Below, one piece after another: positions 2,758 through 23,421 of a DNA stretch of 32,000 nt; position 1 is the first letter of the stretch, and each line of letters opens with the position of its first letter. Under the pieces are notes generated by a model. The model was not told where the DNA came from and ran no database searches. It was given only the letters and a program-made list of their open reading frames with translations. The position numbers and the translations under genes are program-made. This stretch comes from Candidatus Arthromitus sp. SFB-rat-Yit (GTDB lineage Bacteria > Bacillota > Clostridia > Clostridiales > Clostridiaceae), in assembly GCF_000283555.1 (NCBI RefSeq), contig NC_016012.1, positions 480,001 to 512,000 of the forward strand, given 5' to 3'.

Positions 2758-2863
2758 TGATTTATGTTTTACAAATAAATATTTTAAATAATGTTGTAAA
2801 TTGGTTAAAGTTTTAATAAAGAATAACATCTATTAAATTATTTGTTTGAGGGAGATTAATATT

Positions 2864-3418
2864 ATGGTTGATTTAAGTACAGAGGTAATTACTGGAAGAG
2901 TTTGTTTTGATGATGTAAATATTTGGAAAGATAAGGCTATTAATGTAGACAATTTTGAATATTCAGTGTGCTTATTAATACCCAAATCAGATGGTAAGAC
3001 ATTAAGTGATATTAGAAAAGCTATAGAAAATGCAAAAAAAATAGGAATAAATATTTTAGATAATAAATTGAATTTAAATATTGAAAGTCCGTTAAAAGAT
3101 GGACTTGAGAAATCTAAAGATGAAATTTATAAAGGTTGTTATTTTATAAATGCCATTAACATCAACCAGCCAGTTATATTGGATAAATTTAATAAACCAA
3201 TTAATAATAAAGAAGAATTTTATAATGGATGTTATGGATATGCTTCAATTAATTTTTACGCTTTTAATGATAATGTGAATAAGGGTATAACATGTAAAAT
3301 CAATACTATTATAAAGACTGATGATGGAGATTTACAGAATAATAAGTTAAATGATTTGGTAGATATGTCTTGTATAGAAGCTATAAAATTAGAGGGTAGT
3401 GGAAGTTTTATGGTTTAG
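2864..3418 (+). CDS. DUF2815-family protein (phage-associated, ssDNA-binding-like)
   Basis: VITGRV...YSVCLLIPKSDGKTLSDIRKAIENAKK...PLKDG...YKGCYFINA...EEFYNGCYGYASINFYAFN..NKGITC matches my recollection of the DUF2815 consensus along its whole length. The ATG at 2864 lies 7 nt after GAGGGAG. The track start at 2846 is a TTG upstream of the Shine-Dalgarno sequence. Confidence 0.7.
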   Translation: MVDLSTEVITGRVCFDDVNIWKDKAINVDNFEYSVCLLIPKSDGKTLSDIRKAIENAKKIGINILDNKLNLNIESPLKDGLEKSKDEIYKGCYFINAININQPVILDKFNKPINNKEEFYNGCYGYASINFYAFNDNVNKGITCKINTIIKTDDGDLQNNKLNDLVDMSCIEAIKLEGSGSFMV

Positions 3419-3487
3419 TTAAATTATAAAGTTTAAGGATAATATTAAGTTTTGAGATTTTGAAATTTGTTTGTTACGAGTATCTAA

Positions 3488-3520
3488 TAGGGTAAATCTA
3501 AGAGATTTACCCTATTTTTC
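3488..3520 (+). terminator. Rho-independent terminator
   Basis: AGGGTAAATCT (3489-3499) / AGATTTACCCT (3503-3513), a perfect 11-bp stem with a 3-nt loop, followed by ATTTTT. Confidence 0.8.
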
Positions 3521-3721
3521 TGTAAAAAGATACAATAATATTAAGATAATATTATTAAAAGATACTATTTTTTAATATTTAAGCATTAAAAGATATTAAT
3601 TTTTAATAATTTCTTAAATAGAAATTACTATTTCAAAAATTTATATGGATATATAATTAAAACATCAAGTAGGACAAACAAAATTTAAAAATAAGAAATA
3701 AAAGTTTAGGAGATGTTTAAT

Positions 3722-5068
3722 ATGTTAAAAAATAAAATTAAGAAAATATTATCAGTTGTAGCTTTAGGAGCATTAATAACAGTTGGAGCAGGAAGTGTAA
3801 AATCAATGGCAGTTAATACGCAACAAAATACAGCAGCAGTTGTTGCAGAAGATTATTCATATAGTAATTATGGATATGAAGATCTTATACAAGAGATGTT
3901 GGATGAAGGATATATAGATCAAAATAGAGCTACTACTCTTAGAAGTGGTATTAATTCTGAAAATGGACAAATTGAAATAGATAAAACGTATGATTTATAT
4001 TTAGTTGATTTAGATGTAAAAGAGGGATATTACAGCAAAGAAGCTGGAGAAATTTATAAAAGAGTGATAGAAGCAGAATATGCAGGAAATTATGATTTAG
4101 CTGATCAAATATATGACGAGCTTATTGTACAGTTAGATAAAGAAGGAGTAACAGCAGACGAAGATTTAGCAGGGTACTATAGTGAACTTGTAAGTGAAAT
4201 GAAAGATGCTGGATATATAGATCAAGATAGAGCTAATACTTTCACAAATGATATTAATTCTGAAAATGTACAATTTGAAATAGAGAAAGCTTATTATTTA
4301 TATTTAATTGATTTAGATGTAAAAGAAGGGTATTACAGTAAAGAAGCTGGGGAAATGCATAAAAGATTGATAGAAGCAGAATACGCGGGAAATTATGATT
4401 TAGCTGATCAAATATATGATGAGTTTATGGCACAGTTAGAGAAAGAAGGAGTAACAGTAAATGAAGATCTATCAGGGTACTATAGTGAGATTATAAGCGA
4501 AATGAAAGATGCTGGATATATAGATCAAAATAAAGCTAATACTTTTACAAATGATATTAATTCTGAAAATGTACAACTTGAAATAGATAAAATGTATGAT
4601 TTATATTTAATTGATTTAGATGTAAAAGAAGGATATTACAGTAAAGAAGCAGGAGAAATTTATAAAAGAGTGATAGAAGCAGAATATGCAGGAAATTATG
4701 ATTTAGCTGATCAAATATACGACGAGCTTATGGTACAGTTAAACAAAGAAGGAGTAACAGCAGACGAAGATTTAGCAGGGTACTATAGTGAACTTATAAG
4801 TGAAATGAAAGATGCTGGATATATAGATCAAAATAAAGTTAATACTTTTACAAATGATATTAATTCTGAAAATGTACAACTTGAAATAGATAAAGCGTAT
4901 GATTTATATTTAATCGATTTAGATGTAAAAGAGGGATATTACAGTAAAGAAGCTGCAGAAATAGAGAAGAGGTTAGTAGAAGCAGAATACGCAGGAAATT
5001 ATGATTTAGCTGATCAAATATATGACGAGCTTATGGTACAGTTAGAGAAAGAAGGATTATTCCAATAG
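3722..5068 (+). CDS. Secreted acidic repeat protein (signal peptide plus four 101-aa repeats), function unknown
   Basis: N-terminus MLKNKIKKILSVVALGALITVGAGSVKSMA is signal-peptide-like. AGGAG at 3708-3712 sits too close to the track ATG at 3713 and 9 nt from the ATG at 3722. The rest of the protein is four copies of one unit. No anchor motif is visible. Confidence 0.85.
   Translation: MLKNKIKKILSVVALGALITVGAGSVKSMAVNTQQNTAAVVAEDYSYSNYGYEDLIQEMLDEGYIDQNRATTLRSGINSENGQIEIDKTYDLYLVDLDVKEGYYSKEAGEIYKRVIEAEYAGNYDLADQIYDELIVQLDKEGVTADEDLAGYYSELVSEMKDAGYIDQDRANTFTNDINSENVQFEIEKAYYLYLIDLDVKEGYYSKEAGEMHKRLIEAEYAGNYDLADQIYDEFMAQLEKEGVTVNEDLSGYYSEIISEMKDAGYIDQNKANTFTNDINSENVQLEIDKMYDLYLIDLDVKEGYYSKEAGEIYKRVIEAEYAGNYDLADQIYDELMVQLNKEGVTADEDLAGYYSELISEMKDAGYIDQNKVNTFTNDINSENVQLEIDKAYDLYLIDLDVKEGYYSKEAAEIEKRLVEAEYAGNYDLADQIYDELMVQLEKEGLFQ
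3872..5065 (+). repeat. In-frame tandem repeat, about 3.9 copies of a 303-bp unit
   Basis: GGATATATAGATCAA recurs at 3908, 4211, 4514 and 4817 (spacing 303 bp). The peptide unit is GYIDQ..ANTFTNDINSENVQ.EI.K.Y.LYLIDLDVKEGYYSKEAGE..KR.IEAEYAGNYDLADQIYDE...QL.KEGVT..EDL.GYYSE..SEMKDA. Confidence 0.95.
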
Positions 5069-12432: not shown

Positions 12433-12819
12433 TTAATCGTTGAGTTCGAATGAGTACGTACCAACACCATTATCATATTTTAAATCTATGTAATATGTTT
12501 TTTCGCTATTAGGGCTTAAGGTTATTTCTTGTTCTGATGGAGAGTTTATATTTAGGTATTCGTTATTATTTTCATCTACAATTGTTATTGATGTTTTACC
12601 TGTTCTAAGTTTTAGTGAAGTTTTTAAGGTGGATTCTTTTGAAATTGTAAATTTATAAGACTCATTTCCAGAAAATTTTGAAAAGTCTTGTGTTATTTGT
12701 GAGTTTGGTTTGAGTTCACCTATTATTGTTCTCTTAGTTTTAGGAGCATTGGAACATGAAGTTAAAAATAAAGTGAGTGTTACAACAATTGTACCGAGTA
12801 TTAAATATTTTGATCTCAT
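12433..12819 (-). CDS. Small lipoprotein with a beta-sandwich-like domain
   Basis: AAGGAG ribosome-binding site. Signal peptide with lipobox LFLTSC|S. The mature part (...SYKFTISKESTLKTSLKL...ITIVDENNNEY...TYYIDLKYDNGVGTYSFEL) has the alternating pattern of PPC-like beta-sandwich domains. That family call is tentative. Confidence 0.7.
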   Translation of the reverse strand: MRSKYLILGTIVVTLTLFLTSCSNAPKTKRTIIGELKPNSQITQDFSKFSGNESYKFTISKESTLKTSLKLRTGKTSITIVDENNNEYLNINSPSEQEITLSPNSEKTYYIDLKYDNGVGTYSFELND

Positions 12820-12912: not shown

Positions 12913-15900
12913 ATGTACGGATTAATTAAATCAAGAAAGGAAGGAATTAAGTTGAGGAAATTAGATTTAAAAATTTTTAAATTTATGATTTTGATGTTAG
13001 TTGCGATTAGTTGTTTGAAAATTTATAGTGTTTATTCTAAAAATAAGGTGGTTAAACAATCTAGATCATATGATTTTGAATTAAATGTTGAAGATTTGAA
13101 ATTTAATTCTGCTAGATTTAGTTGGGTTTATCCAGATGATTTTGAATTTATAGTTGGAGATTACATAAATTTATTTTTGATTAATGAAGAAAGTGGAAGT
13201 AATGGAGAAAGTCCGATTTTTTCTGCTATTCATGGTAAAGATGGAAATGATCTGTCTAATATTACGAGTCTTGATTTTGATTCGCTTACACATTCAACAA
13301 AATATCAATTGAAATTAGAATTTAATCAAATACATGGAGATTATTATAGTGTTGAAAAAAACTTTGAAACAAATGATTTTGAGATATCGGATATCCAAAT
13401 AGATGGGATAGAGGATGGGGTTGTTAAAAATAAATTGATAAATGTTAAATGGAAAACAAATCCTGAATCAATATCCTTTGGAGAAAATGATAAAGTTGAA
13501 ATACTTTTAAAAGAGTTGAGTGATGAAAGTTTTAGAAGGAATCCAATTTTTTCATCAAATAAAGATGTTAAAAATGCAGAATTTTCTCTTCCGGTATTTG
13601 AAGGCATGTATGACCTTCAAATAGTTTATTACATAAAAGATGATATTATTTACAGTGATTTATTTTATTGTGATTTAAAAAGTGGGGGGATAGAGCTTAT
13701 TACTCAAGATATAAAAACATCTTCTGCAAAACTTGTTTTAAATTATCCGAATCAGGATATTTTAAGCGATAATACTAAGGTTAATATTTATATTAGGGAA
13801 GATATGAATCTTGATTATAGTAAAGATCCGATAATTTCATTTAGTGGAAAGGAAGACATACTTAAAAATAAGGAGTATGTATTTAATAAGCTTAAATTCT
13901 CAACAAAATATTACGTTAAAGTTCAATTCATCATTGAAACTTTTAACAAATTTGGTAAAGATGTTCCAGTTGTAGTTGAGAGTAATTGTGAATTTGAAAC
14001 GAAAAAATTTGGTGTAAAAGATTTGAAATTTACTGATGGAAATGAAAATATATCAAAGCTTAGTTGGGATTTTGATGGTGAGGAAATCTTATTTTCTGAA
14101 GGGGATAGTTTAAAAGTTTACATAAAAGAGAGTTTGGAAGATAGTTATTCTGAAAATATTTTAAAAGATATTAGCCTGAGTGCAGAAGAATTATTAACTA
14201 AAAAGGATTTAGATATTACATTTCCAAAGTACGATACAAAGTATGATATTAAGTTCAATTATAATATCGGAGGAAGAAATCTCTTTGAGTATTTAACTCA
14301 CACGGTTTCTTTACCTAAAATTGATTTTGGGGTTAAGGTAATAGGTGAGGATAGCTTAAATTTTAAAATTAAATTTGATCAAAATAAAACTAAATTTGAA
14401 AAAAATGATGATGATAAGATAGAAATTTTTGTTAAAAAATATGGGGAAAACGATGAGGCTTATAGATCTATAAATTTTACGGAAAATCAAATTACTGCTG
14501 AGCCAGAAAAAGCAAAAGAAGGGGATGCGGAAAATATAGTAGAGAGGGAACTTAAACTTGAAACAATTTCATCAGTTTTTGGGGAAAATCAGCCTTCTAC
14601 AGTAGAAGGAGATGGAAACTCACAAAATACTCAAACAGAGAAAAAACAATATGAATTTAAAATTATTGTTAGGAAAGATGGGGCGATGTTTCAAGAAAAG
14701 TTTTATAGAGTTTCAATGGAGGAAAATTCCCTTCAAATTGTTGATGTTGTATTCAAAAGGATAAGTGAGAAAAAAATTGAGGCAAGTGTTGAGTATGCTC
14801 CATATGATTATGAATTTTCAGATAAAGTTGAATCGCTAAGTTATACAAAGAGTAAGGACACAACTGCTAAGTCTGTACTTAAAAAGAGAACATCAACTGA
14901 AAGTCAAATAACAAGTGAATTTAAAACTAATAGGAAGTTTGAAATAAGTTTTGATGATTTCGGAGTTTATAAATTGAAATTTTCATACAAGATGAAGGAA
15001 ACTCAGGCTACAAATAGAGATGGGAGTGAAAGTTCAGAAAGTAAATTTAATATAACTGAGATGGAAAAAGTTTATAATAATAAATTTGATGTTTTTAGAC
15101 TGGAACTTAGAGATGATATTTTTAATGAAATAAAGCTAAATTTAGATTTTGATAGCTATTACACTCCTAAAAATGGAGATAAGGTTGAAATATTTTTTAA
15201 GGTTAATAGTGAAGACGAAACAGATAAAAAGAGCGAAGACTTTAGTAAAGATCCATTAGTTACATTTGTTCATAAAGATAATGAACTTAATTTATCAAAT
15301 ATGGGAGCTTTTGATTTAGCAGGATTAGATGCTGGAACTAAATACAGTTTTAAGGTAATATTTACTCCTAAAGATTCACAATCAAATGCAATAGAAAAAT
15401 ATAAAGATGCAGAAACTAAAGATATTAAAATTTCTAATTTAGTAATTGATCATGTATCGGACATAATTGCGTATGCAAGATGGGAACTCGAAGAAGGATG
15501 TGAATTTGGAGTTAATGATAAATTGGATATTTTTTATAAAAAAGATGGTGAGGAGTATCCCAAAGATCCAAATCAGCAAGAAGAAGATTTGTATATTAAT
15601 GATGGGGTTATTCTTTATTTAGATACGGTTGATACTCAGTATAATATAAAATTTGTGTTTAGAAGTGGAAGTAAAACTTTTGAGGAAGAGGTGGATTTCA
15701 ATAATAAGATAAATGATTTAGAAGTTGAAATTTTAGATATATATGAAACCTCAGTATATGTGAAATGGGATTATCCTGAAAATTATAGTATTACAGATGG
15801 TGAGAGTATTTCAATATTTTTAAAAAGAAAAGATGGAGTTTATGCTGAAGAGCCTGATTATTTTGTTGAACAAAATGATGAGGAAGGAGAAGATATAGAA

Positions 15901-17268
15901 ACATTTAAAAGTGTTAAGATTACAAGTTTATGTCCAAATATGGAATATGATATAAAGCTTGTATTAGATTTTGGAGATGTAGGGAAAAAAGAAAAGGAAA
16001 TCAGTTTTAAATCTAAGGAACTTGATATATCAAATATCTCACTGAAAGCATTAACAAATAAATTCTTTGATGTATCTTGGGAGTTTTCTTCAGATACGCT
16101 AGAATTCGATGATGAGTTGGATTATATAAATATTTATAAAAAAATTGAGGATGAAGAATTTTCAGAATCCAATATTGTTTTTGAAATTGATAAAAATATT
16201 GATAAACGAAACAGTGTAAGAATTGAGGTTGATGATATTTCTAAAAATTATGATGTTAAAGTTGAATATGAATTTTTGTTTGGAAGTATAGAGAAAACGA
16301 TTTCTGGAGGAGGATTATTTTTAGAATTTGAGGAAGATTCACCAAACTTAATTTTGAAATATCCTAAATCTTTAGTATTTGAAAATGGGGATTCTATAGA
16401 TATTTTTTCAAAGCATGAATCTGAAGAAGAATATAAAGAGTTTATGAATATAAAACATTCATCTTCTAAAAATTTAAATGAAATAGGAAGTATAGAGCTT
16501 GATAATCCAGTTTCTGGAACATCATTTATTTTAATTATTAACAACAAGAATACTCAAGTATTCCCTGTTATGGCTAATTATGGAAATGGAGAATATGAAG
16601 GAGATGAGTCAGAATACCCAGTTTTGGATATTGTTAGTGAGATGAAGGGAAACTGGGTGGATATACAGATTCCTGATGAATACGAAGTTGATATTTCATC
16701 AGAAGTTTTAAATAGTATTGGTGGAAATTCTTATTATGCTGAGTTAGAGGATGGAAGCTATGTAATTGTAATAGATAGGATTGTACCGAAAAAAGTTTAT
16801 TCTAATGTGTTTGTTTTAACTTCAGATATAGATGGAAATGAAGTTAGATTTGATATAGGTGAATTTAAGCTTGAACCATATAATTTGCTAGAAGATTTCT
16901 TATATAATTCTTATTATTTTGCATTTGATAGAGAGCCTGATGAAAACGGATACAATTATTGGAAGGATCAACTCGAAGAGGAAGAGAGCAGTATATCTGG
17001 TAAATATTTTTTAATTAATTTGATGTTTGCTGAGAGGGAGTTTGCAGATAGAAATTTAAGTGATGAAGATTTGATAAAAGTTTTATATCAAATTGTGGTT
17101 AATAGACAGTATGATACTGAAGGATTAAATTATTGGATTTCTGTATATGGAGAGTATTTGGAAGAGTTTGGTGGAGATAAGTATGAAGCAAAGAAAACTA
17201 TAGTTTTAAGAATGGCTTATGAGCCTGAGTTCGGAAGATTGTGTGATAAGATGGGAATAGCTTGGTAA
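12913..17268 (+). CDS. Giant secreted/surface repeat protein A (1451 aa): N-terminal signal or anchor, about 11 FN3-like modules, C-terminal DUF4214-like domain
   Basis: Single uninterrupted ORF. An alternative TTG start at 12952 lies 6 nt after AAGGAAGGA. Hydrophobic N-terminus FKFMILMLVAISCLKIYS. Modules recur with W.YP..(Y/F)....GD.I.(I/L)F and L.P...Y..K signatures. Confidence 0.9.
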   Translation: MYGLIKSRKEGIKLRKLDLKIFKFMILMLVAISCLKIYSVYSKNKVVKQSRSYDFELNVEDLKFNSARFSWVYPDDFEFIVGDYINLFLINEESGSNGESPIFSAIHGKDGNDLSNITSLDFDSLTHSTKYQLKLEFNQIHGDYYSVEKNFETNDFEISDIQIDGIEDGVVKNKLINVKWKTNPESISFGENDKVEILLKELSDESFRRNPIFSSNKDVKNAEFSLPVFEGMYDLQIVYYIKDDIIYSDLFYCDLKSGGIELITQDIKTSSAKLVLNYPNQDILSDNTKVNIYIREDMNLDYSKDPIISFSGKEDILKNKEYVFNKLKFSTKYYVKVQFIIETFNKFGKDVPVVVESNCEFETKKFGVKDLKFTDGNENISKLSWDFDGEEILFSEGDSLKVYIKESLEDSYSENILKDISLSAEELLTKKDLDITFPKYDTKYDIKFNYNIGGRNLFEYLTHTVSLPKIDFGVKVIGEDSLNFKIKFDQNKTKFEKNDDDKIEIFVKKYGENDEAYRSINFTENQITAEPEKAKEGDAENIVERELKLETISSVFGENQPSTVEGDGNSQNTQTEKKQYEFKIIVRKDGAMFQEKFYRVSMEENSLQIVDVVFKRISEKKIEASVEYAPYDYEFSDKVESLSYTKSKDTTAKSVLKKRTSTESQITSEFKTNRKFEISFDDFGVYKLKFSYKMKETQATNRDGSESSESKFNITEMEKVYNNKFDVFRLELRDDIFNEIKLNLDFDSYYTPKNGDKVEIFFKVNSEDETDKKSEDFSKDPLVTFVHKDNELNLSNMGAFDLAGLDAGTKYSFKVIFTPKDSQSNAIEKYKDAETKDIKISNLVIDHVSDIIAYARWELEEGCEFGVNDKLDIFYKKDGEEYPKDPNQQEEDLYINDGVILYLDTVDTQYNIKFVFRSGSKTFEEEVDFNNKINDLEVEILDIYETSVYVKWDYPENYSITDGESISIFLKRKDGVYAEEPDYFVEQNDEEGEDIETFKSVKITSLCPNMEYDIKLVLDFGDVGKKEKEISFKSKELDISNISLKALTNKFFDVSWEFSSDTLEFDDELDYINIYKKIEDEEFSESNIVFEIDKNIDKRNSVRIEVDDISKNYDVKVEYEFLFGSIEKTISGGGLFLEFEEDSPNLILKYPKSLVFENGDSIDIFSKHESEEEYKEFMNIKHSSSKNLNEIGSIELDNPVSGTSFILIINNKNTQVFPVMANYGNGEYEGDESEYPVLDIVSEMKGNWVDIQIPDEYEVDISSEVLNSIGGNSYYAELEDGSYVIVIDRIVPKKVYSNVFVLTSDIDGNEVRFDIGEFKLEPYNLLEDFLYNSYYFAFDREPDENGYNYWKDQLEEEESSISGKYFLINLMFAEREFADRNLSDEDLIKVLYQIVVNRQYDTEGLNYWISVYGEYLEEFGGDKYEAKKTIVLRMAYEPEFGRLCDKMGIAW
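13075..16560 (+). repeat. Protein-level array of about 11 divergent beta-sandwich modules of about 100 aa each (protein A)
   Basis: Anchor strings: SARFSWVYPDDFEFIVGDYINLFL, LINVKWKTNPESISFGENDKVEILL, SAKLVLNYPNQDILSDNTKVNIYI, ISKLSWDFDGEEILFSEGDSLKVYI, SVYVKWDYPENYSITDGESISIFL, FFDVSWEFSSDTLEFDDELDYINIY, and others. Module boundaries are approximate. Confidence 0.7.
16876..17265 (+). other. DUF4214-like C-terminal domain of protein A
   Basis: PYNLLEDFLYNSYYFAFDREPDENGYNYWKDQL...LINLMFAEREF...LIKVLYQIVVNRQYDTEGLNYW...EPEFGRLCDKMGIAW. The F..LY...L.R.PD..G..YW......SxEF pattern fits my recollection of DUF4214. Confidence 0.6.
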
Positions 17269-17291
17269 TTTTGTATTTATGGAGGAGAAAA

Positions 17292-20200
17292 ATGAAGACA
17301 TGTATGAAGAAATTCATTATTAATCTCATGATTCTTATATTTTTATTTGAATTAATTCCGCTTGGAGATATGGGTATTAAATTAGGATTTGTTGAAAAAT
17401 CTAGTGCTTATTATACCCAGCTTGATTCAGTTGCTCCAGGTTATGTGATAAGTGCTGAGGAGGGAGGGATTGTATTTGATTTAAGTCAAAGATTATCAAG
17501 CTCGATGAGTGTTGAATCATTTAGTATAAAGAATATGAATCCAGAACAACAGAAAAAAGATTTGAAAGAAGAATCTTCAGATGGAGTTAGATGGTTAACA
17601 AAAGATGAAATGATAAATGGTCATATCTATGAAATTGAAAGTAAGATTTATGATTCTGAAATCGATAAGACATTAACATTTATAAATTCTTTTAAATTTA
17701 CAGATAAAAATACAGCGTACAATCCTAAGGTATCTTTTTCAAATTTTGATGCTAATAGGATGATTACTCAAGATGTTTTTTTTGATTTTTCAAATTGTAA
17801 AGAATTGATAAATAATTCAAATAGATTAGATCTTGAGATTTTAAATTCTGATTTAACAAAGGCAGAAATAGATTCAGTTTTTGTTGATAAAAATGACCTT
17901 GTAAATGCTGGTTATAGATATAAACTTTCCAGAGCAGCATCTATTTTTAAACCGAACAAGGATTATATAATTAGACTTAATGCAGATGGTGTTATTTGGG
18001 ATAAGATGATTTCTTGTTCATTAAAGGCAAATCCTACATTAGTTGAAAATATTAGACCTACAGAGATAGATTTTAAATATTATGCTAAGCAAAGAAATCT
18101 TTTCATTCCGACATTAGATTTTGGAATTTGTAAAACGTTTACTGATAGGCATCATGTTGAAGTTAAGATTATTTTAAGTAATTCAAAAAAAGGTCTTGTT
18201 CCAGTTGAAGTAACAGGTGAAATACCACGTTTAGCAGAAATTAATATTCCAGAAGAATATTGTTCAACAATAATACCAAGTGATATAAGAGTTTATTTTT
18301 CTGATAAATATACTGGAGCTTTACTTGCTGAGTATTTATTTCAAGTTACATTTAAAGAGGGCGGGTGTTTTATGTGGACTGGACTTTCTTATTATGGAGA
18401 AAAAGATATATCAGGTTATCAAATAACTAAAATAACACCAGTTCATGAAGAAAATGATACTACAACTGTTCCACATTCATGGGATGAATTTCCACGAGCA
18501 CATTATATAACTTTATATGATAATAAATTAGAAAATCAAATAGGTGGAGAATATAGATTTGATGTTACAAAAACTAAATATGAATATGTAGGTGCGGAGC
18601 AGAATGTTAAAGGTGCTAACTTTAAAGTGCCGTTTAAAGATATGAGGCAAGGTTTTAATAGTTATAATTTTAAATTTGAATCGAGCAATCGTTATCCAGA
18701 ATGGGGATATGCGTATATACCATTTGGTTTTTATGCGGATATAGTTGAAATAAAAGATTTAGACATTGAGGTAAAGGATTTAAAAGTAAATTCTTCAGGT
18801 AAATATGATTTTAGTTTCGAACTGAAAAATCAAAATGTTATCACAGGTGATAAGATGAGCATTATAGATGATAATGGTAAAGAATATATAGCTAATGTAA
18901 ATACTTCAAAGAGATTTAATTTTAAAGATATTCCATTAGTGTTTGGAGGTAAATATGTAGTTACTTATAATAAAATAAGTTCACTTTTTCACTTTAAATC
19001 TACGGATATGTCTATATTATTTAATCCAGTTGTAATAGGAACTTCTTCAAATGGTCAAAATGTTGTTGAAATTGATTTTGATAAGAAATATGAGAAGATC
19101 CTAAACTCAGATAGGATGAAAAATCGTATTAGAATATTGCACATGAATGGTAATAGCACAGGGAATGAATTTACGGATTTTAATGTAGGAAAACATAAAT
19201 TTACATTAAGTTCAGGACTGACTGAAGGACAAAATTATATAGTGGAGTTTTCAAACTCTAAGGAGGAAACGTATAAAACTACGTTTCAGTATACTACAAT
19301 GAAGCTTGACTTGTCAGACGTAACAGGGACAACAGCGAAATTAAATTGGGAATATCCTAGTAATTATCTAATAACAGATGGAGATGTATTAAATATATAT
19401 TTCAAAAAAGAGGATGCTAACTATCCAGCTATTCCTGATGCTAAAATAATGCATGGATTTCAGGGTATAGATTTTAATGATGTGACAACATATACGATTA
19501 GAAACATGAGTCCAAATATAAATTACGTTGCAAAACTTGAACTTGTAACTAATGAGGGTATGACCTATGTAGATGAAACTGAGTTTGTAACAAGTACTTT
19601 TAAAATATTGAATGAAGAAATTGAAGGTATTTCTGAGGATGGTACTGTAAACAGTAAATCTATAAATTTTAAATGGGATATAAATCTTGGTGATATAGAA
19701 TTTAATGCAGGAGATAAGGTAGAACTTTTTCTTAAATTGCGTTCTCATAATGCATTCCCTAAAACGCCAGTATCGACGATAGATCAAGATTTAAATAGAA
19801 ATAAACGGATTAAATTTGATGTATCAAATTATTATGAAGATTATAGTGCAAAAATTGTTTATACAATAGGTGGAGTTCGTCATACAAGTAAAGTTTTAAA
19901 TTTTAGTGTAGAGCCGGAAAAATTAGAATTATCTGTAAATGATATTACAGATTATTCGGCTGTCGTTAATTGGAAATATCCAGAAGGTATAAATATAGAA
20001 AATAATCATGAGATTAGGGTTTATTTAAGAAAAGCTGGTGATTTAGATTATAGACTTGAAAAGACATATAAACAGTCTGAAACTTCTCTTAAAGATGTAA
20101 CTAAATATAAGTTTGATAAACTTAGATTTGAAACTACGTACCAAGTTAAGCTTGTTTATAAAGTTGGAGATAAGCAAGTTGCAGGAGTAAGTGAGGATGT

Positions 20201-23200
20201 AACACAAGATATCGAAATAGAATTTAGGACGGAAAGTTTTGTTATAAATAATCTTCGTTTTGAAAAGGATATGAATAATCTTGTAAATGTAATGTGGAAT
20301 TTAAAAAATGATAATTATCCTTATGTTAATGGTGATTCAGTAGAATTATTTTTAAAAGAAAGAGGAGCACCATCACAGAATTATAAAAAATTCCAATATG
20401 CAACAGGGAATATTTCAGCAGTGAGAGCATTTAACATAATGATACCTAAATTTAATGTAGATTATGATATGAAATTGACTTATACTTTGGGTGGTAAACA
20501 AGTTAGTGCTTATGGAAATTGTAGACTTGATATGGGAGATATAGGTTTTAATGTTGATGAGATAACAGATACTAAAATTAAAGTTTCTTGGACATACCCA
20601 GATAATTATAGTATTTCAAATAATGATAAGATTGAAGTATCTTTGAAAAATCTTGAAGATGGAAATAATGTGGAATCTGAATCGAAGACACAAAATTATG
20701 ATAATAATAATACTACTATGATTAAAGATTTTAAGGAAAAAGAATTTACTTTAACTAAAGATAAAATGTATGAAGTTAAGATTAGATTTTCATCGGTATA
20801 TGCAGAACCTATTGAGAAATCGTTTAAATTTAAAGCTACTTCTGGATTTCAAATTTTAGGTTTAGTTGGTAAGTCTTTAGATTCTAAATCATTTAAACTT
20901 GAATGGGATTTTTACAATAATAATGAGGAATTTGATTCAAATAGTAAAATTGAAATTTTATACAAAGAAGAACCAAAGGGAAGTTCACAAGATGCTTCAC
21001 AAGACAATAATGTTGAAGATAAATTATTTGAAAATGTTAATCCTGTTTCAACTCGTACTGGAAGTGAATTGAAAGAATTTAAGTCTTATGTAGTTGAGGG
21101 ACTTGATGTAAATAAAAATTATTTGTTTAGAGTTCGGTATACTATTACTGGAGATTCGGGAAAGGTAGTATACAAAGATTTGGTAGGTAAAACAGAAGCA
21201 AGAAAAATAACTTCGAGCGTAATTGATACACAACCTACAGGTGTTAAAATTTCAGTTGAGTATCCGGAGAACTATGAAATATTAGAAGGTGATATCTTAG
21301 ATATATTTATAAGAAGAAAAGAAGAAACGAATTATTCAGTTAATCCTAATTTTACTGGAAAGCATGGCAGTGGGGAAGATGATGTTGACTTAAATGAAGT
21401 AACTGTACTTGATATACTTGGATTATCTCCAAATAAAGAATATTTTTCTAAAGTTGTATTTTGGCCAGATGGTGGTTCGGGAATTAAACAAGAGATGGAA
21501 CTTAGCTTTAAAACAGACGTAGTAGAAGGTATAGGAGAAGTAATTATAGGTGACGTTTTAGATTATGTGGTAAAAGTAGGAATTAAGATGGAGCCAGATG
21601 AGCTTATTTTAAGTGATAAAGATAGTTGTAAGGTTTTTATAAAGAAGAAAGATCAAACTCATTATCCAGATAAATCAAATGGTGAAATTCGTGGAGATAT
21701 ATTTAATGAAGAAAAATTTATATCAGCATATTTTGATGAATTGAACGCAGAGTACGATGTGAAGGTTATAGTGAATATTGGTGGCAATGAGTTTGAAAAG
21801 GAAACTAGTTTTGTAAGTAAGATTGATGATTTTAATATTGATGTTAAAGAAATTAATCCGATGACGACGCAAGTAGAATGGAGATATCCAAATAATTATA
21901 CACTTGTGGATGGTGAAAGTATTCAGATATTTATCAAATATCAAGATGAGGATGATTTTTTAAGTGAACCTGATCTTGAACTTATTCAATCAGATGATTT
22001 GAATTTATCTGATATAAATTTGGTTGAATTATATTCATTGATTCCTGATACTAGATATGAAGTTAAGGTGAAATTGAATTTATTAGAAGCGGATGTAAAA
22101 CCAGTTATTAAGGAATTTACTACAACTGTTTTTGAGATAGAGAATCTTGAAATACAGGACATAAGTAGTGATGGAATGTCTATTAAATGGGATCTGAGTA
22201 CAGAAGAATTAGATTTTATAGATGAGTATGATAATTTATCTGTTTTTATTAAGAATAGCAATGAAGAAGATTATGATTTTTCAAATCCTGTGGCAGAGTT
22301 CACAGAAGGTTTAAATGATATAAGGTCAATATCTTTTCAAACAGAAGATAGCATAGCAGATGTTGATATTTATTTATCATATTTAATTGAAGATTATGAA
22401 GCTGCTATGGAAATATCATATACAGCAATTGATTTAAATGTTGAAGTGCAACAAGAAGGGGTATTAGTTGAATGGACGTATCCACCTGGAATAGAATTTG
22501 AAAAAGATGATAGACTCGATATTTATTTGAAACATGCTAATAAGTCGGGATATAAGACAGAACCAAATTTTAGATATACTAATGGAAAAGATGGCGATCT
22601 AAGTGAATTAAATGAAATATTTTTCAAAAGATTAGGAATTGGAAACTATGTGATGAAGTTTTCATTAATCACAAGTGATATGAGATATAATCCTATAGAA
22701 ATCGAGTTCAATGTGCAGGATCAAGATGTGGTCGGAACAGAACTTAAGTTTAATGGAAAATCAAGTAATAGAAAAATAGAATTAGATATTGTTGGTGATA
22801 ATGAATTTGATTATGAAAAAGGGTTTAACATTAATCCTGAAGGTTTGGATCTTGAGATAGATGAGGTTAGAAATAAATTTATAGTTAAGAATCTGGTTCC
22901 AGGGAAAGATTATAAAAATATTGTTATTACTTTTTACACAGAAGAAGACGATGAAATTAATTTTGTAGTTAAAAATGTAAAGATAAATCCTGAAAATCTT
23001 TTGCAAGAATTTATAACAAATATTTATAAATTTGCATTTGAGCGTTATCCAGATGAGGAAGGATATGGATATTGGCTTGGAAGACTTCTTGAAAAAGGAG
23101 AAGTTACAGGTAAGTTTGTTTTATATAATTTGATGTTTGCAGAACGTGAATTTTCTGAAAGAAATCTTTCAGATGATGAATTAATAAAAGTTTTATACCA

Positions 23201-23381
23201 AATAGTAGTTAACAGAGAATATGATGAAGGAGGATTGAATTATTGGATAGGTGAATATAGAAACACATATTTACCACAAGCTAATAATGATAGTTATGAG
23301 GCACAAAAAGCTATAGTTGCAAGAATGTTACATGAGCAAGAGTTCAAAGATTTGTGTAACAAAATGGGTATCTTGTGGTAA
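17292..23381 (+). CDS. Giant secreted/surface repeat protein B (2029 aa): signal peptide, non-repeat head of about 670 aa, about 12 FN3-like modules, C-terminal DUF4214-like domain
   Basis: The ATG at 17292 lies 4 nt after GGAGGAG and 23 nt after the stop of protein A, with no intervening terminator. The track start at 17262 is a TTG overlapping gene A and is unlikely to be used. N-terminus MKTCMKKFIINLMILIFLFELIPLG. Confidence 0.9.
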   Translation: MKTCMKKFIINLMILIFLFELIPLGDMGIKLGFVEKSSAYYTQLDSVAPGYVISAEEGGIVFDLSQRLSSSMSVESFSIKNMNPEQQKKDLKEESSDGVRWLTKDEMINGHIYEIESKIYDSEIDKTLTFINSFKFTDKNTAYNPKVSFSNFDANRMITQDVFFDFSNCKELINNSNRLDLEILNSDLTKAEIDSVFVDKNDLVNAGYRYKLSRAASIFKPNKDYIIRLNADGVIWDKMISCSLKANPTLVENIRPTEIDFKYYAKQRNLFIPTLDFGICKTFTDRHHVEVKIILSNSKKGLVPVEVTGEIPRLAEINIPEEYCSTIIPSDIRVYFSDKYTGALLAEYLFQVTFKEGGCFMWTGLSYYGEKDISGYQITKITPVHEENDTTTVPHSWDEFPRAHYITLYDNKLENQIGGEYRFDVTKTKYEYVGAEQNVKGANFKVPFKDMRQGFNSYNFKFESSNRYPEWGYAYIPFGFYADIVEIKDLDIEVKDLKVNSSGKYDFSFELKNQNVITGDKMSIIDDNGKEYIANVNTSKRFNFKDIPLVFGGKYVVTYNKISSLFHFKSTDMSILFNPVVIGTSSNGQNVVEIDFDKKYEKILNSDRMKNRIRILHMNGNSTGNEFTDFNVGKHKFTLSSGLTEGQNYIVEFSNSKEETYKTTFQYTTMKLDLSDVTGTTAKLNWEYPSNYLITDGDVLNIYFKKEDANYPAIPDAKIMHGFQGIDFNDVTTYTIRNMSPNINYVAKLELVTNEGMTYVDETEFVTSTFKILNEEIEGISEDGTVNSKSINFKWDINLGDIEFNAGDKVELFLKLRSHNAFPKTPVSTIDQDLNRNKRIKFDVSNYYEDYSAKIVYTIGGVRHTSKVLNFSVEPEKLELSVNDITDYSAVVNWKYPEGINIENNHEIRVYLRKAGDLDYRLEKTYKQSETSLKDVTKYKFDKLRFETTYQVKLVYKVGDKQVAGVSEDVTQDIEIEFRTESFVINNLRFEKDMNNLVNVMWNLKNDNYPYVNGDSVELFLKERGAPSQNYKKFQYATGNISAVRAFNIMIPKFNVDYDMKLTYTLGGKQVSAYGNCRLDMGDIGFNVDEITDTKIKVSWTYPDNYSISNNDKIEVSLKNLEDGNNVESESKTQNYDNNNTTMIKDFKEKEFTLTKDKMYEVKIRFSSVYAEPIEKSFKFKATSGFQILGLVGKSLDSKSFKLEWDFYNNNEEFDSNSKIEILYKEEPKGSSQDASQDNNVEDKLFENVNPVSTRTGSELKEFKSYVVEGLDVNKNYLFRVRYTITGDSGKVVYKDLVGKTEARKITSSVIDTQPTGVKISVEYPENYEILEGDILDIFIRRKEETNYSVNPNFTGKHGSGEDDVDLNEVTVLDILGLSPNKEYFSKVVFWPDGGSGIKQEMELSFKTDVVEGIGEVIIGDVLDYVVKVGIKMEPDELILSDKDSCKVFIKKKDQTHYPDKSNGEIRGDIFNEEKFISAYFDELNAEYDVKVIVNIGGNEFEKETSFVSKIDDFNIDVKEINPMTTQVEWRYPNNYTLVDGESIQIFIKYQDEDDFLSEPDLELIQSDDLNLSDINLVELYSLIPDTRYEVKVKLNLLEADVKPVIKEFTTTVFEIENLEIQDISSDGMSIKWDLSTEELDFIDEYDNLSVFIKNSNEEDYDFSNPVAEFTEGLNDIRSISFQTEDSIADVDIYLSYLIEDYEAAMEISYTAIDLNVEVQQEGVLVEWTYPPGIEFEKDDRLDIYLKHANKSGYKTEPNFRYTNGKDGDLSELNEIFFKRLGIGNYVMKFSLITSDMRYNPIEIEFNVQDQDVVGTELKFNGKSSNRKIELDIVGDNEFDYEKGFNINPEGLDLEIDEVRNKFIVKNLVPGKDYKNIVITFYTEEDDEINFVVKNVKINPENLLQEFITNIYKFAFERYPDEEGYGYWLGRLLEKGEVTGKFVLYNLMFAEREFSERNLSDDELIKVLYQIVVNREYDEGGLNYWIGEYRNTYLPQANNDSYEAQKAIVARMLHEQEFKDLCNKMGILW
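19299..22988 (+). repeat. Protein-level array of about 12 beta-sandwich modules of about 100 aa each, two subtypes alternating (protein B)
   Basis: Type-1 anchors: TAKLNWEYPSNYLITDGDVLNIYF, SAVVNWKYPEGINIENNHEIRVYL, KIKVSWTYPDNYSISNNDKIEVSL, GVKISVEYPENYEILEGDILDIFI, TTQVEWRYPNNYTLVDGESIQIFI, GVLVEWTYPPGIEFEKDDRLDIYL. These interleave with type-2 anchors: SINFKWDINLGDIEFNAGDKVELFL, LVNVMWNLKNDNYPYVNGDSVELFL, SFKLEWDFYNNNEEFDSNSKIEILY, VVKVGIKMEPDELILSDKDSCKVFI, GMSIKWDLSTEELDFIDEYDNLSVFI. Confidence 0.75.
22989..23378 (+). other. DUF4214-like C-terminal domain of protein B
   Basis: PENLLQEFITNIYKFAFERYPDEEGYGYWLGRL...LYNLMFAEREF...LIKVLYQIVVNREYDEGGLNYW...EQEFKDLCNKMGILW. It is collinear with the tail of protein A. 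Confidence 0.6.
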
Positions 23382-23385
23382 TATA

Positions 23386-23421
23386 TTAACCATCAATTTA
23401 TATTGATGGTTAATTTTTTTT
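23386..23421 (+). terminator. Strong rho-independent terminator ending the giant-protein operon
   Basis: TTAACCATCAAT (23386-23397) / ATTGATGGTTAA (23402-23413), a perfect 12-bp stem with a 4-nt loop, followed by T8. Confidence 0.9.

Follow-up and report, generated by a model that had tools for sequence, protein, structure and literature searches.

How very long, putatively secreted proteins are held at the cell surface of a bacterium without sortase is the question raised by two adjacent genes of Candidatus (Ca.) Arthromitus sp. SFB-rat-Yit, a gut symbiont of the rat and member of the segmented filamentous bacteria (SFB). The genes, RATSFB_0417 (gene 1) and RATSFB_0418 (gene 2), lie in a stretch of 32,000 nucleotides (nt) of contig NC_016012.1 (assembly GCF_000283555.1, positions 480,001 to 512,000 of the forward strand), which we call the window and in which the positions below are counted. 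They encode proteins of 167 and 234 kDa, both carrying the name "DUF4214 domain-containing protein" at NCBI (GenBank/RefSeq). SFB serve as the model commensal in studies of epithelial attachment and of the induction of T helper 17 (Th17), immunoglobulin A and CD8 responses, and at stake here are sortase-less surface display in SFB and the composition of their surface layer (S-layer) and hair-like layers. An initial annotation had described the pair as giant paralogous repeat proteins with no recognisable anchoring motif. We found that both proteins end in a double DUF4214 repeat, which is their most conserved region among orthologs, and that this tail follows a faster evolving rod of fibronectin type III (FN3)-like modules. 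Taken as a whole, we consider it probable that the locus, part of the SFB core chromosome, is an operon of two genes encoding two anciently duplicated, Sec-exported fibrillar surface proteins that are anchored by their DUF4214 tails.

The DUF4214 tail and the FN3-like rod

Both proteins match the Pfam family DUF4214 (PF13946) at their extreme C-terminus, with 54.4 bits for gene 1 and 47.7 bits for gene 2 compared to a gathering score of 23.2. Each half of the tail follows the pattern [FL]Y..[AF]..R.PD..G..[YF]W...L...(S/A)-EF, in which both halves keep R, D, G and W invariant, also in distant relatives (R118, D121, G124, W128, R175, D178, G181 and W185 in alignment A2). The AlphaFold2 model of the gene 2 tail reaches a predicted local distance difference test score (pLDDT) above 90. 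For gene 2 residues 1801-2029, modeled from an alignment of 18 sequences, the mean pLDDT is 88.8 and a beta-sandwich is followed by a bundle of eight helices. The initial annotation had noted a conserved tail of about 130 amino acids (aa) common to both proteins, as well as divergence of the C-terminal regions in the DNA, and both observations hold: between the two tails, identity is 61% at the amino acid and 65% at the nucleotide level. Recent gene conversion between the two genes was rejected, as their longest common word in the tails comprises only 15 nt. DUF4214 is a very large family, represented by 7085 sequences at 50% clustering (E<=1e-3), and the nearest relatives of the tail are other long proteins combining FN3 modules with the tail and short proteins consisting of the tail only.

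No sequence match to the tail was found in the PDB, profile search included, nor was a solved DUF4214 structure found by sequence. At the level of the fold, the best PDB matches in Foldseek are phycobilisome linker (PF00427) domains (3osj, 3nph and 7sc8), with a probability of 1.0, E 4e-3, a template modeling score (TM) of about 0.5 and 13-14% identity. The tail does not belong to PF00427 itself, to which neither Pfam nor the PDB gave a sequence match, and the organism is non-photosynthetic. With Foldseek we thus arrived independently at the likeness to phycobilisome linkers that Pamp et al. 2012 (PMC3371716) had noted. These authors described an SFB-specific "Cluster.1" of 19 predicted secreted proteins with four conserved C-terminal regions matching PF13946, for which tandem helices and a phycobilisome-linker-like three-dimensional structure (2KY4) were predicted, and a related "Cluster.3" with one FN3-containing member. 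They proposed that the clustered proteins are components of surface structures. The characters of this SFB C-terminal motif, helical PF13946 blocks and a phycobilisome-linker-like fold, were both found in the present pair by AlphaFold2 and Foldseek.

Jonsson et al. 2020 (PMC7474095) reported that SFB have no sortase gene and that at least 14 extracellular proteins carry the C-terminal motif, among them the Th17 antigen p3340. Immuno-electron microscopy placed p3340 in the wall, and the motif was postulated to be an anchor for surface proteins. A cryo-electron tomography study from 2025 (PMC12780176) refers to DUF4214 as a 'likely surface-anchoring domain' and finds the domain of unknown function of the Th17 antigen also on SFB peptidoglycan hydrolases. 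It is from this literature that we have taken that SFB are without sortase and that the DUF4214 protein p3340 is located in the wall. Since DUF4214 matches in Pfam and already has the status of a putative anchor in SFB, the statement that the pair has no recognisable anchoring motif fails. The tail is a catalogued domain, and the pair is therefore an ordinary member of a known family with a known open question; at the family level the finding is already known, as motif, family and question have been in the SFB literature since 2012. The locus tags of the pair are named in no searchable paper text.

Apart from DUF4214, the scans for anchoring motifs agree with what the initial annotation had reported as missing. 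LPXTG, a lipobox and a C-terminal transmembrane segment are absent from both proteins. The only loose sortase-like sequences are NPVSG and LPQAN; neither is followed by a hydrophobic stretch, and there is no charged tail. SLH, LysM, GW, choline-binding and CWB2 modules gave no match in Pfam at E<=0.1, where fn3, DUF4214 and a weak Pur_ac_phosph_N match (FN3-like fold) were the only matches in both proteins, and an NCBIfam scan of the two proteins returned zero matches.

Most of the remaining length is made up of beta-sandwich modules, for which the initial annotation had estimated a size of about 100 aa. Using our own iterative hidden Markov model (HMM) grown from one module, we identified 11 FN3-like modules per protein with a period of about 105 aa; a 12th module was recognized with AlphaFold2. 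The Pfam family fn3 (PF00041) matches with 73.7 bits in gene 2 and 32.2 bits in gene 1 compared to a whole-protein cut-off of 25 bits. In the matrix of module scores, odd-numbered modules carry the motif W-x-YP-x-NY...GD and even-numbered modules are of another type. BLASTP aligned residues 42-1451 of gene 1 (numbered on the open reading frame (ORF) version of 1451 aa) colinearly with residues 656-2029 of gene 2 at 27% identity (E 4e-128), in agreement with the paralogy claimed before. Modules 2, 3, 4, 8, 10 and 11 of gene 1 each find their best match in the gene 2 module of the same number, which indicates that the rod was duplicated whole, as one unit. Recent repeat expansion was rejected, as neither stalk contains tandem repeats at the DNA level.

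The two proteins differ at their N-terminal end. In gene 1 the putative signal peptide leads directly into module 1, whereas gene 2 has an extra 640 residues or so. An AlphaFold2 model of this extension (pLDDT 86.9, predicted TM 0.77) is all-beta with about six domains, and its Foldseek matches in the PDB are exclusively multi-Ig, FN3 or macroglobulin chains (CD109, gp130, complement C5, the BSP domain of Bap) with TM <0.2. We therefore regard this 'head' as a set of further beta-sandwich domains and not as a recognisable lectin or enzyme; both of the latter were rejected, as Pfam is empty here, the confident model consists of beta-sandwiches throughout and the Foldseek matches are generic. 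The head-stalk-tail layout proposed initially consequently applies to gene 2 only, gene 1 being headless, and even in gene 2 the head is not a distinct globular binding domain.

Two stretches of the proteins stand out by their variability. Gene 2 residues 231-390 (positions 17982-18461) are the least conserved stretch of the protein in SFB orthologs, with a majority fraction of 0.36-0.45, and the flanking blocks are well conserved (e.g. IPHSWD.FPRAHYITLYD and GGEYRFDV); this stretch may form a host-specific variable surface. In gene 1, module 5 is truncated and followed by a low-complexity sequence in which E, K, S, T and Q abound (…EPEKAKEGDAENIVERELK…GNSQNTQTEKK…; modules 5-6, positions 14330-15100). 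With 28-62% identity in orthologs the region of modules 5-6 belongs to those parts of gene 1 that diverge most, and the low-complexity stretch may act as a flexible hinge of the rod.

We analyzed the conservation of the pair in related genomes. Mouse SFB carry orthologs with 70-71% identity (SFBNYU_010710 / SFBSU_006G241 and the adjacent SFBSU_006G242). In a set of species-representative genomes, the locus was found in three members of the SFB clade, a Clostridiales metagenome-assembled genome, Ca. Dwaynia gallinarum and an uncultured Ca. Arthromitus (loci L001 to L003, of which L002 belongs to Ca. Dwaynia gallinarum and L003 to the uncultured Ca. Arthromitus). The order of gene 1 followed by gene 2 is kept in all three, gene 1 of L002 being cut by the end of the contig. 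Flanking genes are identical in kind wherever the contigs reach (upstream in L001 and L003, downstream in all three). Identity to rat SFB amounts to 43-50% for the pair in comparison to 58-74% for the flanking housekeeping proteins. The length of gene 2 orthologs is 2012-2069 aa, and that of gene 1 orthologs about 1440-1490 aa in the database and 1523-1528 aa in the calls for L001 and L003. The preserved order, the synteny and the near-constant lengths in diverged SFB indicate that the duplication predates the SFB radiation and that both copies are under purifying selection for their overall architecture, which agrees with the initial view of an old duplication with both copies maintained.

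Within the proteins the tail is the most conserved region among orthologs. In gene 2 the mean majority fraction is 0.86 in the tail, 0.50-0.79 in the modules and 0.36-0.71 in the head. For gene 1, identity is 73-91% in the tail in contrast to 30-60% in the stalk modules of more distant orthologs (28-84% overall). A conserved tail combined with a fast-evolving rod is the pattern expected of an exposed rod on a conserved attachment module.

Proposed retention at the cell envelope

On this basis we propose the following arrangement. Each protein would form a rod, with 12 beta-sandwich domains in gene 1 and about 18 in gene 2, ending in the helical double DUF4214 repeat of 130 aa. The tail would hold the C-terminus non-covalently at the cell envelope, its ligand probably being a conserved wall glycopolymer, and the FN3 rod together with the extra N-terminal domains of gene 2 would project outward. 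Because SFB are without sortase, the most likely mechanism is that the tail, which is common to more than 12 other secreted SFB proteins, acts as anchor. The contrast between a constrained tail and a fast-evolving rod speaks for an anchor, and it makes the two proteins concrete candidates for hair-like structures.

Several points weigh against an anchored rod of this kind. The tails are acidic, with an isoelectric point of 4.3-4.6, and in this they are unlike modules of the SLH and CWB2 type, which bind anionic wall polymers and are basic. The only solved fold relative of the tail, the phycobilisome linker domain, is a protein-protein adaptor. In the literature we found no expression or localization data for RATSFB_0417/0418. 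None of the published SFB peptides and epitopes maps to the pair or its collected orthologs; known antigens and peptides (the epitopes of p3340, SGLIYVTL of SFBNYU_003240 and human-SFB DUF4214 peptides) gave 0 matches among 243 collected proteins, and an identity of the pair with them was rejected. Finally, the glycan binding proposed for the DUF4214 protein Psh of Pseudomonas putida is a result of in silico modeling only (bioRxiv 10.64898/2026.09.02.748959).

The initial annotation had named membership in an already characterized adhesin or S-layer family with a known anchoring mechanism as an outcome that would speak against it. DUF4214 is a known and annotated family, but its anchoring mechanism is a putative one, and the finding is therefore not refuted on these grounds.

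Among the alternatives, we regard it as rather unlikely that the tail is a protein-protein assembly module, by which the proteins, either alone or with other DUF4214 proteins, would build a lattice (in intracellular offspring the S-layer, in filaments the ordered hair-like layer), or would be released. Such a role would suit the nearest solved fold, as the phycobilisome linker domain docks into protein rings, and the acidic tails speak for it as well. Furthermore, an association of DUF4214 proteins with the S-layer has been discussed for other bacteria (PMC11970703), and in SFB an S-layer, disordered hair-like structures of 34 +/- 6 nm and an ordered hair-like layer have been described (PMC12780176). 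The hair-like structures are thin and conserved in rat and mouse SFB (PMC12780176). However, the same tail is attached to many unrelated SFB cargos, reportedly including peptidoglycan hydrolases, which fits a generic targeting module better, and with the TM and identity values given above the fold match is weak.

The N-termini bear on a second alternative, in which the proteins would sit in the membrane by an uncleaved signal-anchor, with the DUF4214 tail as their distal, functional end. Hydrophobicity windows over the whole proteins detected a single hydrophobic segment in each, located at the N-terminus and accompanied by a plausible cleavage site, consistent with the signal-like starts noted initially. 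In gene 2 the conserved AXA-like site lies about 15 residues beyond the hydrophobic core, an unusually long c-region that would be in line with an uncleaved anchor. Against this, the cores comprise only 14-17 residues, one of them including a Glu, and a rod of 12-18 domains would need to thread the entire wall. The N-terminal segment is also poorly conserved, as is typical of cleaved signals: in gene 1 orthologs it is the least conserved part (14-39% identity), and in gene 2 orthologs it ranks with the least conserved ones (majority fraction 0.52, near the stalk modules that vary most). We consider a hold by the N-terminus improbable. That the ORFs are decaying or unexpressed relics, in whose favor the negative search for expression data would speak, is highly improbable given intact full-length orthologs of near-constant length in every SFB lineage sampled, conserved gene order and a strongly constrained tail.

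Returning to the DUF4214-anchored rods, a further step would be that RATSFB_0417/0418 and their orthologs are building blocks of the SFB hair-like structures or layer, planted on the wall by the tail; in that case DUF4214 would represent a new class of modules that anchor surface proteins non-covalently in Gram-positive bacteria. We regard this as quite unlikely, albeit conceivable. An FN3 domain measures about 3.5 nm, and a rod of 12 domains would therefore extend about 40 nm, which is the right order of magnitude compared to 34 +/- 6 nm. The pair represents the longest FN3-rod DUF4214 member found in this analysis and is a well-described candidate rather than a discovery.

Operon signals and chromosomal surroundings

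The features of the locus are listed in Table 1. The initial annotation had reported two co-oriented ORFs of 1451 and about 2029 aa that are separated by 23 nt, and the ORF calls (12913..17268 and 17262/17292..23381, both on the + strand) and the gap were confirmed. For gene 1 the ORF is real, but the start proposed at ATG 12913 is not the likeliest: TTG 12952, preceded by AAGGAAGG, is the most likely start and also the RefSeq start, and the original GenBank entry uses a later ATG (1424 aa). Gene 1 stops with TAA at 17266-17268. The ORF of gene 2 opens at 17262, and translation from ATG 17292 gives an exact match to the NCBI protein. The tag RATSFB_0418 was assigned to gene 2 via BAK80980.1 being consecutive to BAK80979.1. 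A GGAGGAG without hairpin had been noted in the gap; the site is present, and a consensus scan detected no terminator between the two genes. Behind gene 2 the terminator with T8 was found as described, its stem comprising 13 bp instead of the perfect 12 bp reported. The positions of gap, ribosome-binding site and terminator support the operon layout.

Table 1. Position of the features of the gene pair in the window.
Feature	Positions	Strand	Description
Gene 1 ribosome-binding site	12937..12944	+	AAGGAAGG; 7 nt before TTG 12952; read from sequence
Gene 1, RATSFB_0417	12952..17268	+	WP_242821416.1; BAK80979.1; 1438 aa; 100% identity to SFB-rat-Yit protein
Gene 1 putative signal peptide, ~29 aa	12952..13038	+	MRKLDLK, hydrophobic core, VYS/K; putative cleavage site
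Gene 1 stalk	13090..16530	+	11 FN3-like modules of ~105 aa; own HMM and Pfam fn3; two alternating subtypes
Gene 1 module 12	16567..16875	+	degenerate beta-sandwich; aligns with gene 2 module 12
Gene 1 tail	16876..17265	+	two DUF4214 half-repeats; all-helical; ends ...MGIAW; PF13946 in 2 stretches
Intergenic gap, 23 nt	17269..17291	+	GGAGGAG at 17281-17287; without terminator
Gene 2, RATSFB_0418	17292..23381	+	BAK80980.1 / WP_014094443.1; 2029 aa; 100% identity, SFB-rat-Yit
Gene 2 putative signal peptide, ~39 aa	17292..17408	+	AKA/F-type site conserved in orthologs; putative cleavage
Gene 2 N-terminal extension ('head', aa 40-670)	17409..19301	+	predicted ~six beta-sandwich domains; AlphaFold2
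Gene 2 stalk	19302..22691	+	11 FN3-like modules, colinear with the gene 1 stalk; own HMM and Pfam fn3
Gene 2 module 12	22692..22991	+	beta-sandwich; AlphaFold2, strands at residues 4-96 of model
Gene 2 tail	22992..23378	+	double DUF4214 repeat; 8 helices; ends ...MGILW; PF13946 in 2 stretches
Intrinsic terminator	23385..23421	+	TTAACCATCAAT/ATTGATGGTTAA; 13-bp stem, 4-nt loop, T8

The neighbors of the pair are ordinary chromosomal genes. Upstream are genes for RecJ, a PAS histidine kinase, MurG, a TPR protein and small hypothetical proteins, and downstream those for ZapA, rubrerythrin, a CDF transporter, MatE and a monofunctional transglycosylase. No further ORF with the tail was found in the window or in the 10-kb flanks of the three related loci. 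Just upstream of gene 1 and divergent from it lies a gene for a small predicted lipoprotein (12433-12819, - strand; MRSKYLILGTIVVTLTLFLTSC..., lipobox LTSC) that matches no Pfam family and is present at the same position in L001 and L003 with 53-66% identity. Downstream of the pair, Ca. Dwaynia gallinarum has an additional ORF of 443 aa between ZapA and rubrerythrin (L002 9539-10870, - strand), and in the uncultured Ca. Arthromitus the rubrerythrin gene is missing (L003 18917-19048). Antisense to gene 2, an ORF of 132 aa was called at 19389-19787 (- strand), which is most likely a chance product of the AT-rich coding sequence.

The window is AT-rich, with 22-31% G+C. GC skew is strongly positive in every 1-kb window (0.17-0.46) and the + strand carries 17 of the 24 long ORFs, which suggests that the stretch belongs to the leading strand of one replichore. 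Neither a tRNA nor an Rfam family was found in the 32,000 nt. At 2846-3418 (+ strand) a phage-type single-stranded DNA-binding protein of the Enc34 family (PF10991, E 2e-42) is encoded, followed at 3713-5068 (+ strand) by an ORF of 451 aa whose Pfam matches are sub-threshold and mutually unrelated. This region among housekeeping genes (2846-5068) may be a remnant of a prophage or mobile element.

Comparison with known systems

Phycobilisome linker domains are the best solved-structure match of the tail; their biology is unrelated and the likeness holds at the level of the fold only. In its proposed role the tail is similar to SLH and CWB2, modules by which S-layer and wall proteins of Firmicutes bind the wall non-covalently; they likewise form a conserved terminal module of many surface proteins in one organism and retain them on a secondary wall polymer. 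It differs from them in lacking any sequence match, in its all-alpha, phycobilisome-linker-like fold and in being acidic instead of basic.

With regard to the rod, the pair resembles sortase-anchored fibrillar adhesins of Gram-positive bacteria (SasG/Aap, Rib/alpha-like and Bap-type proteins), which also combine a signal peptide, putative in the pair, with a long tandem beta-sandwich rod that would extend outward from the wall; the gene 2 head even has the weak Foldseek match to the BSP domain of Bap. The modules of the pair are anciently diverged without tandem repeats in the DNA, their number appears fixed (11 + 1 in both proteins) and ortholog length is near-constant. Many sortase-anchored fibrillar adhesins, in contrast, vary in module number. 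Unlike these adhesins, the pair has neither LPXTG nor a C-terminal transmembrane segment nor a charged tail, and SFB are without sortase (PMC7474095).

Psh of P. putida KT2440 shares with the pair its secretion, predicted in the pair, and a helical C-terminal DUF4214. This RTX-DUF4214 protein is assigned a receptor-masking role at the cell surface, where it is proposed to sit on the O-antigen glycan, binding being proposed from genomic context and modeling (bioRxiv 10.64898/2026.09.02.748959). In contrast to the pair, it belongs to a Gram-negative bacterium, is exported by type I secretion and has an RTX body instead of FN3 modules; its glycan binding is modeled and the responsible domain unmapped.

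The closest known systems are found in the same group of organisms. The SFB proteins of Cluster.1 as well as Cluster.3 (Pamp 2012), including p3340 (SFBNYU_003340) and the CD8 antigen SFBNYU_003240, correspond to the pair in their N-terminal signal, putative in the pair, their variable and fast-evolving body and the conserved helical C-terminal DUF4214 motif with its phycobilisome-linker-like fold. The pair lies at loci distinct from those of the two antigens, whose epitopes it does not contain, and its proteins of 167 and 234 kDa are much longer, the Th17 antigen in its tagged recombinant form having about 114 kDa. Unlike p3340 and SFBNYU_003240, the pair consists almost entirely of FN3-like modules and is maintained as conserved tandem paralogs.

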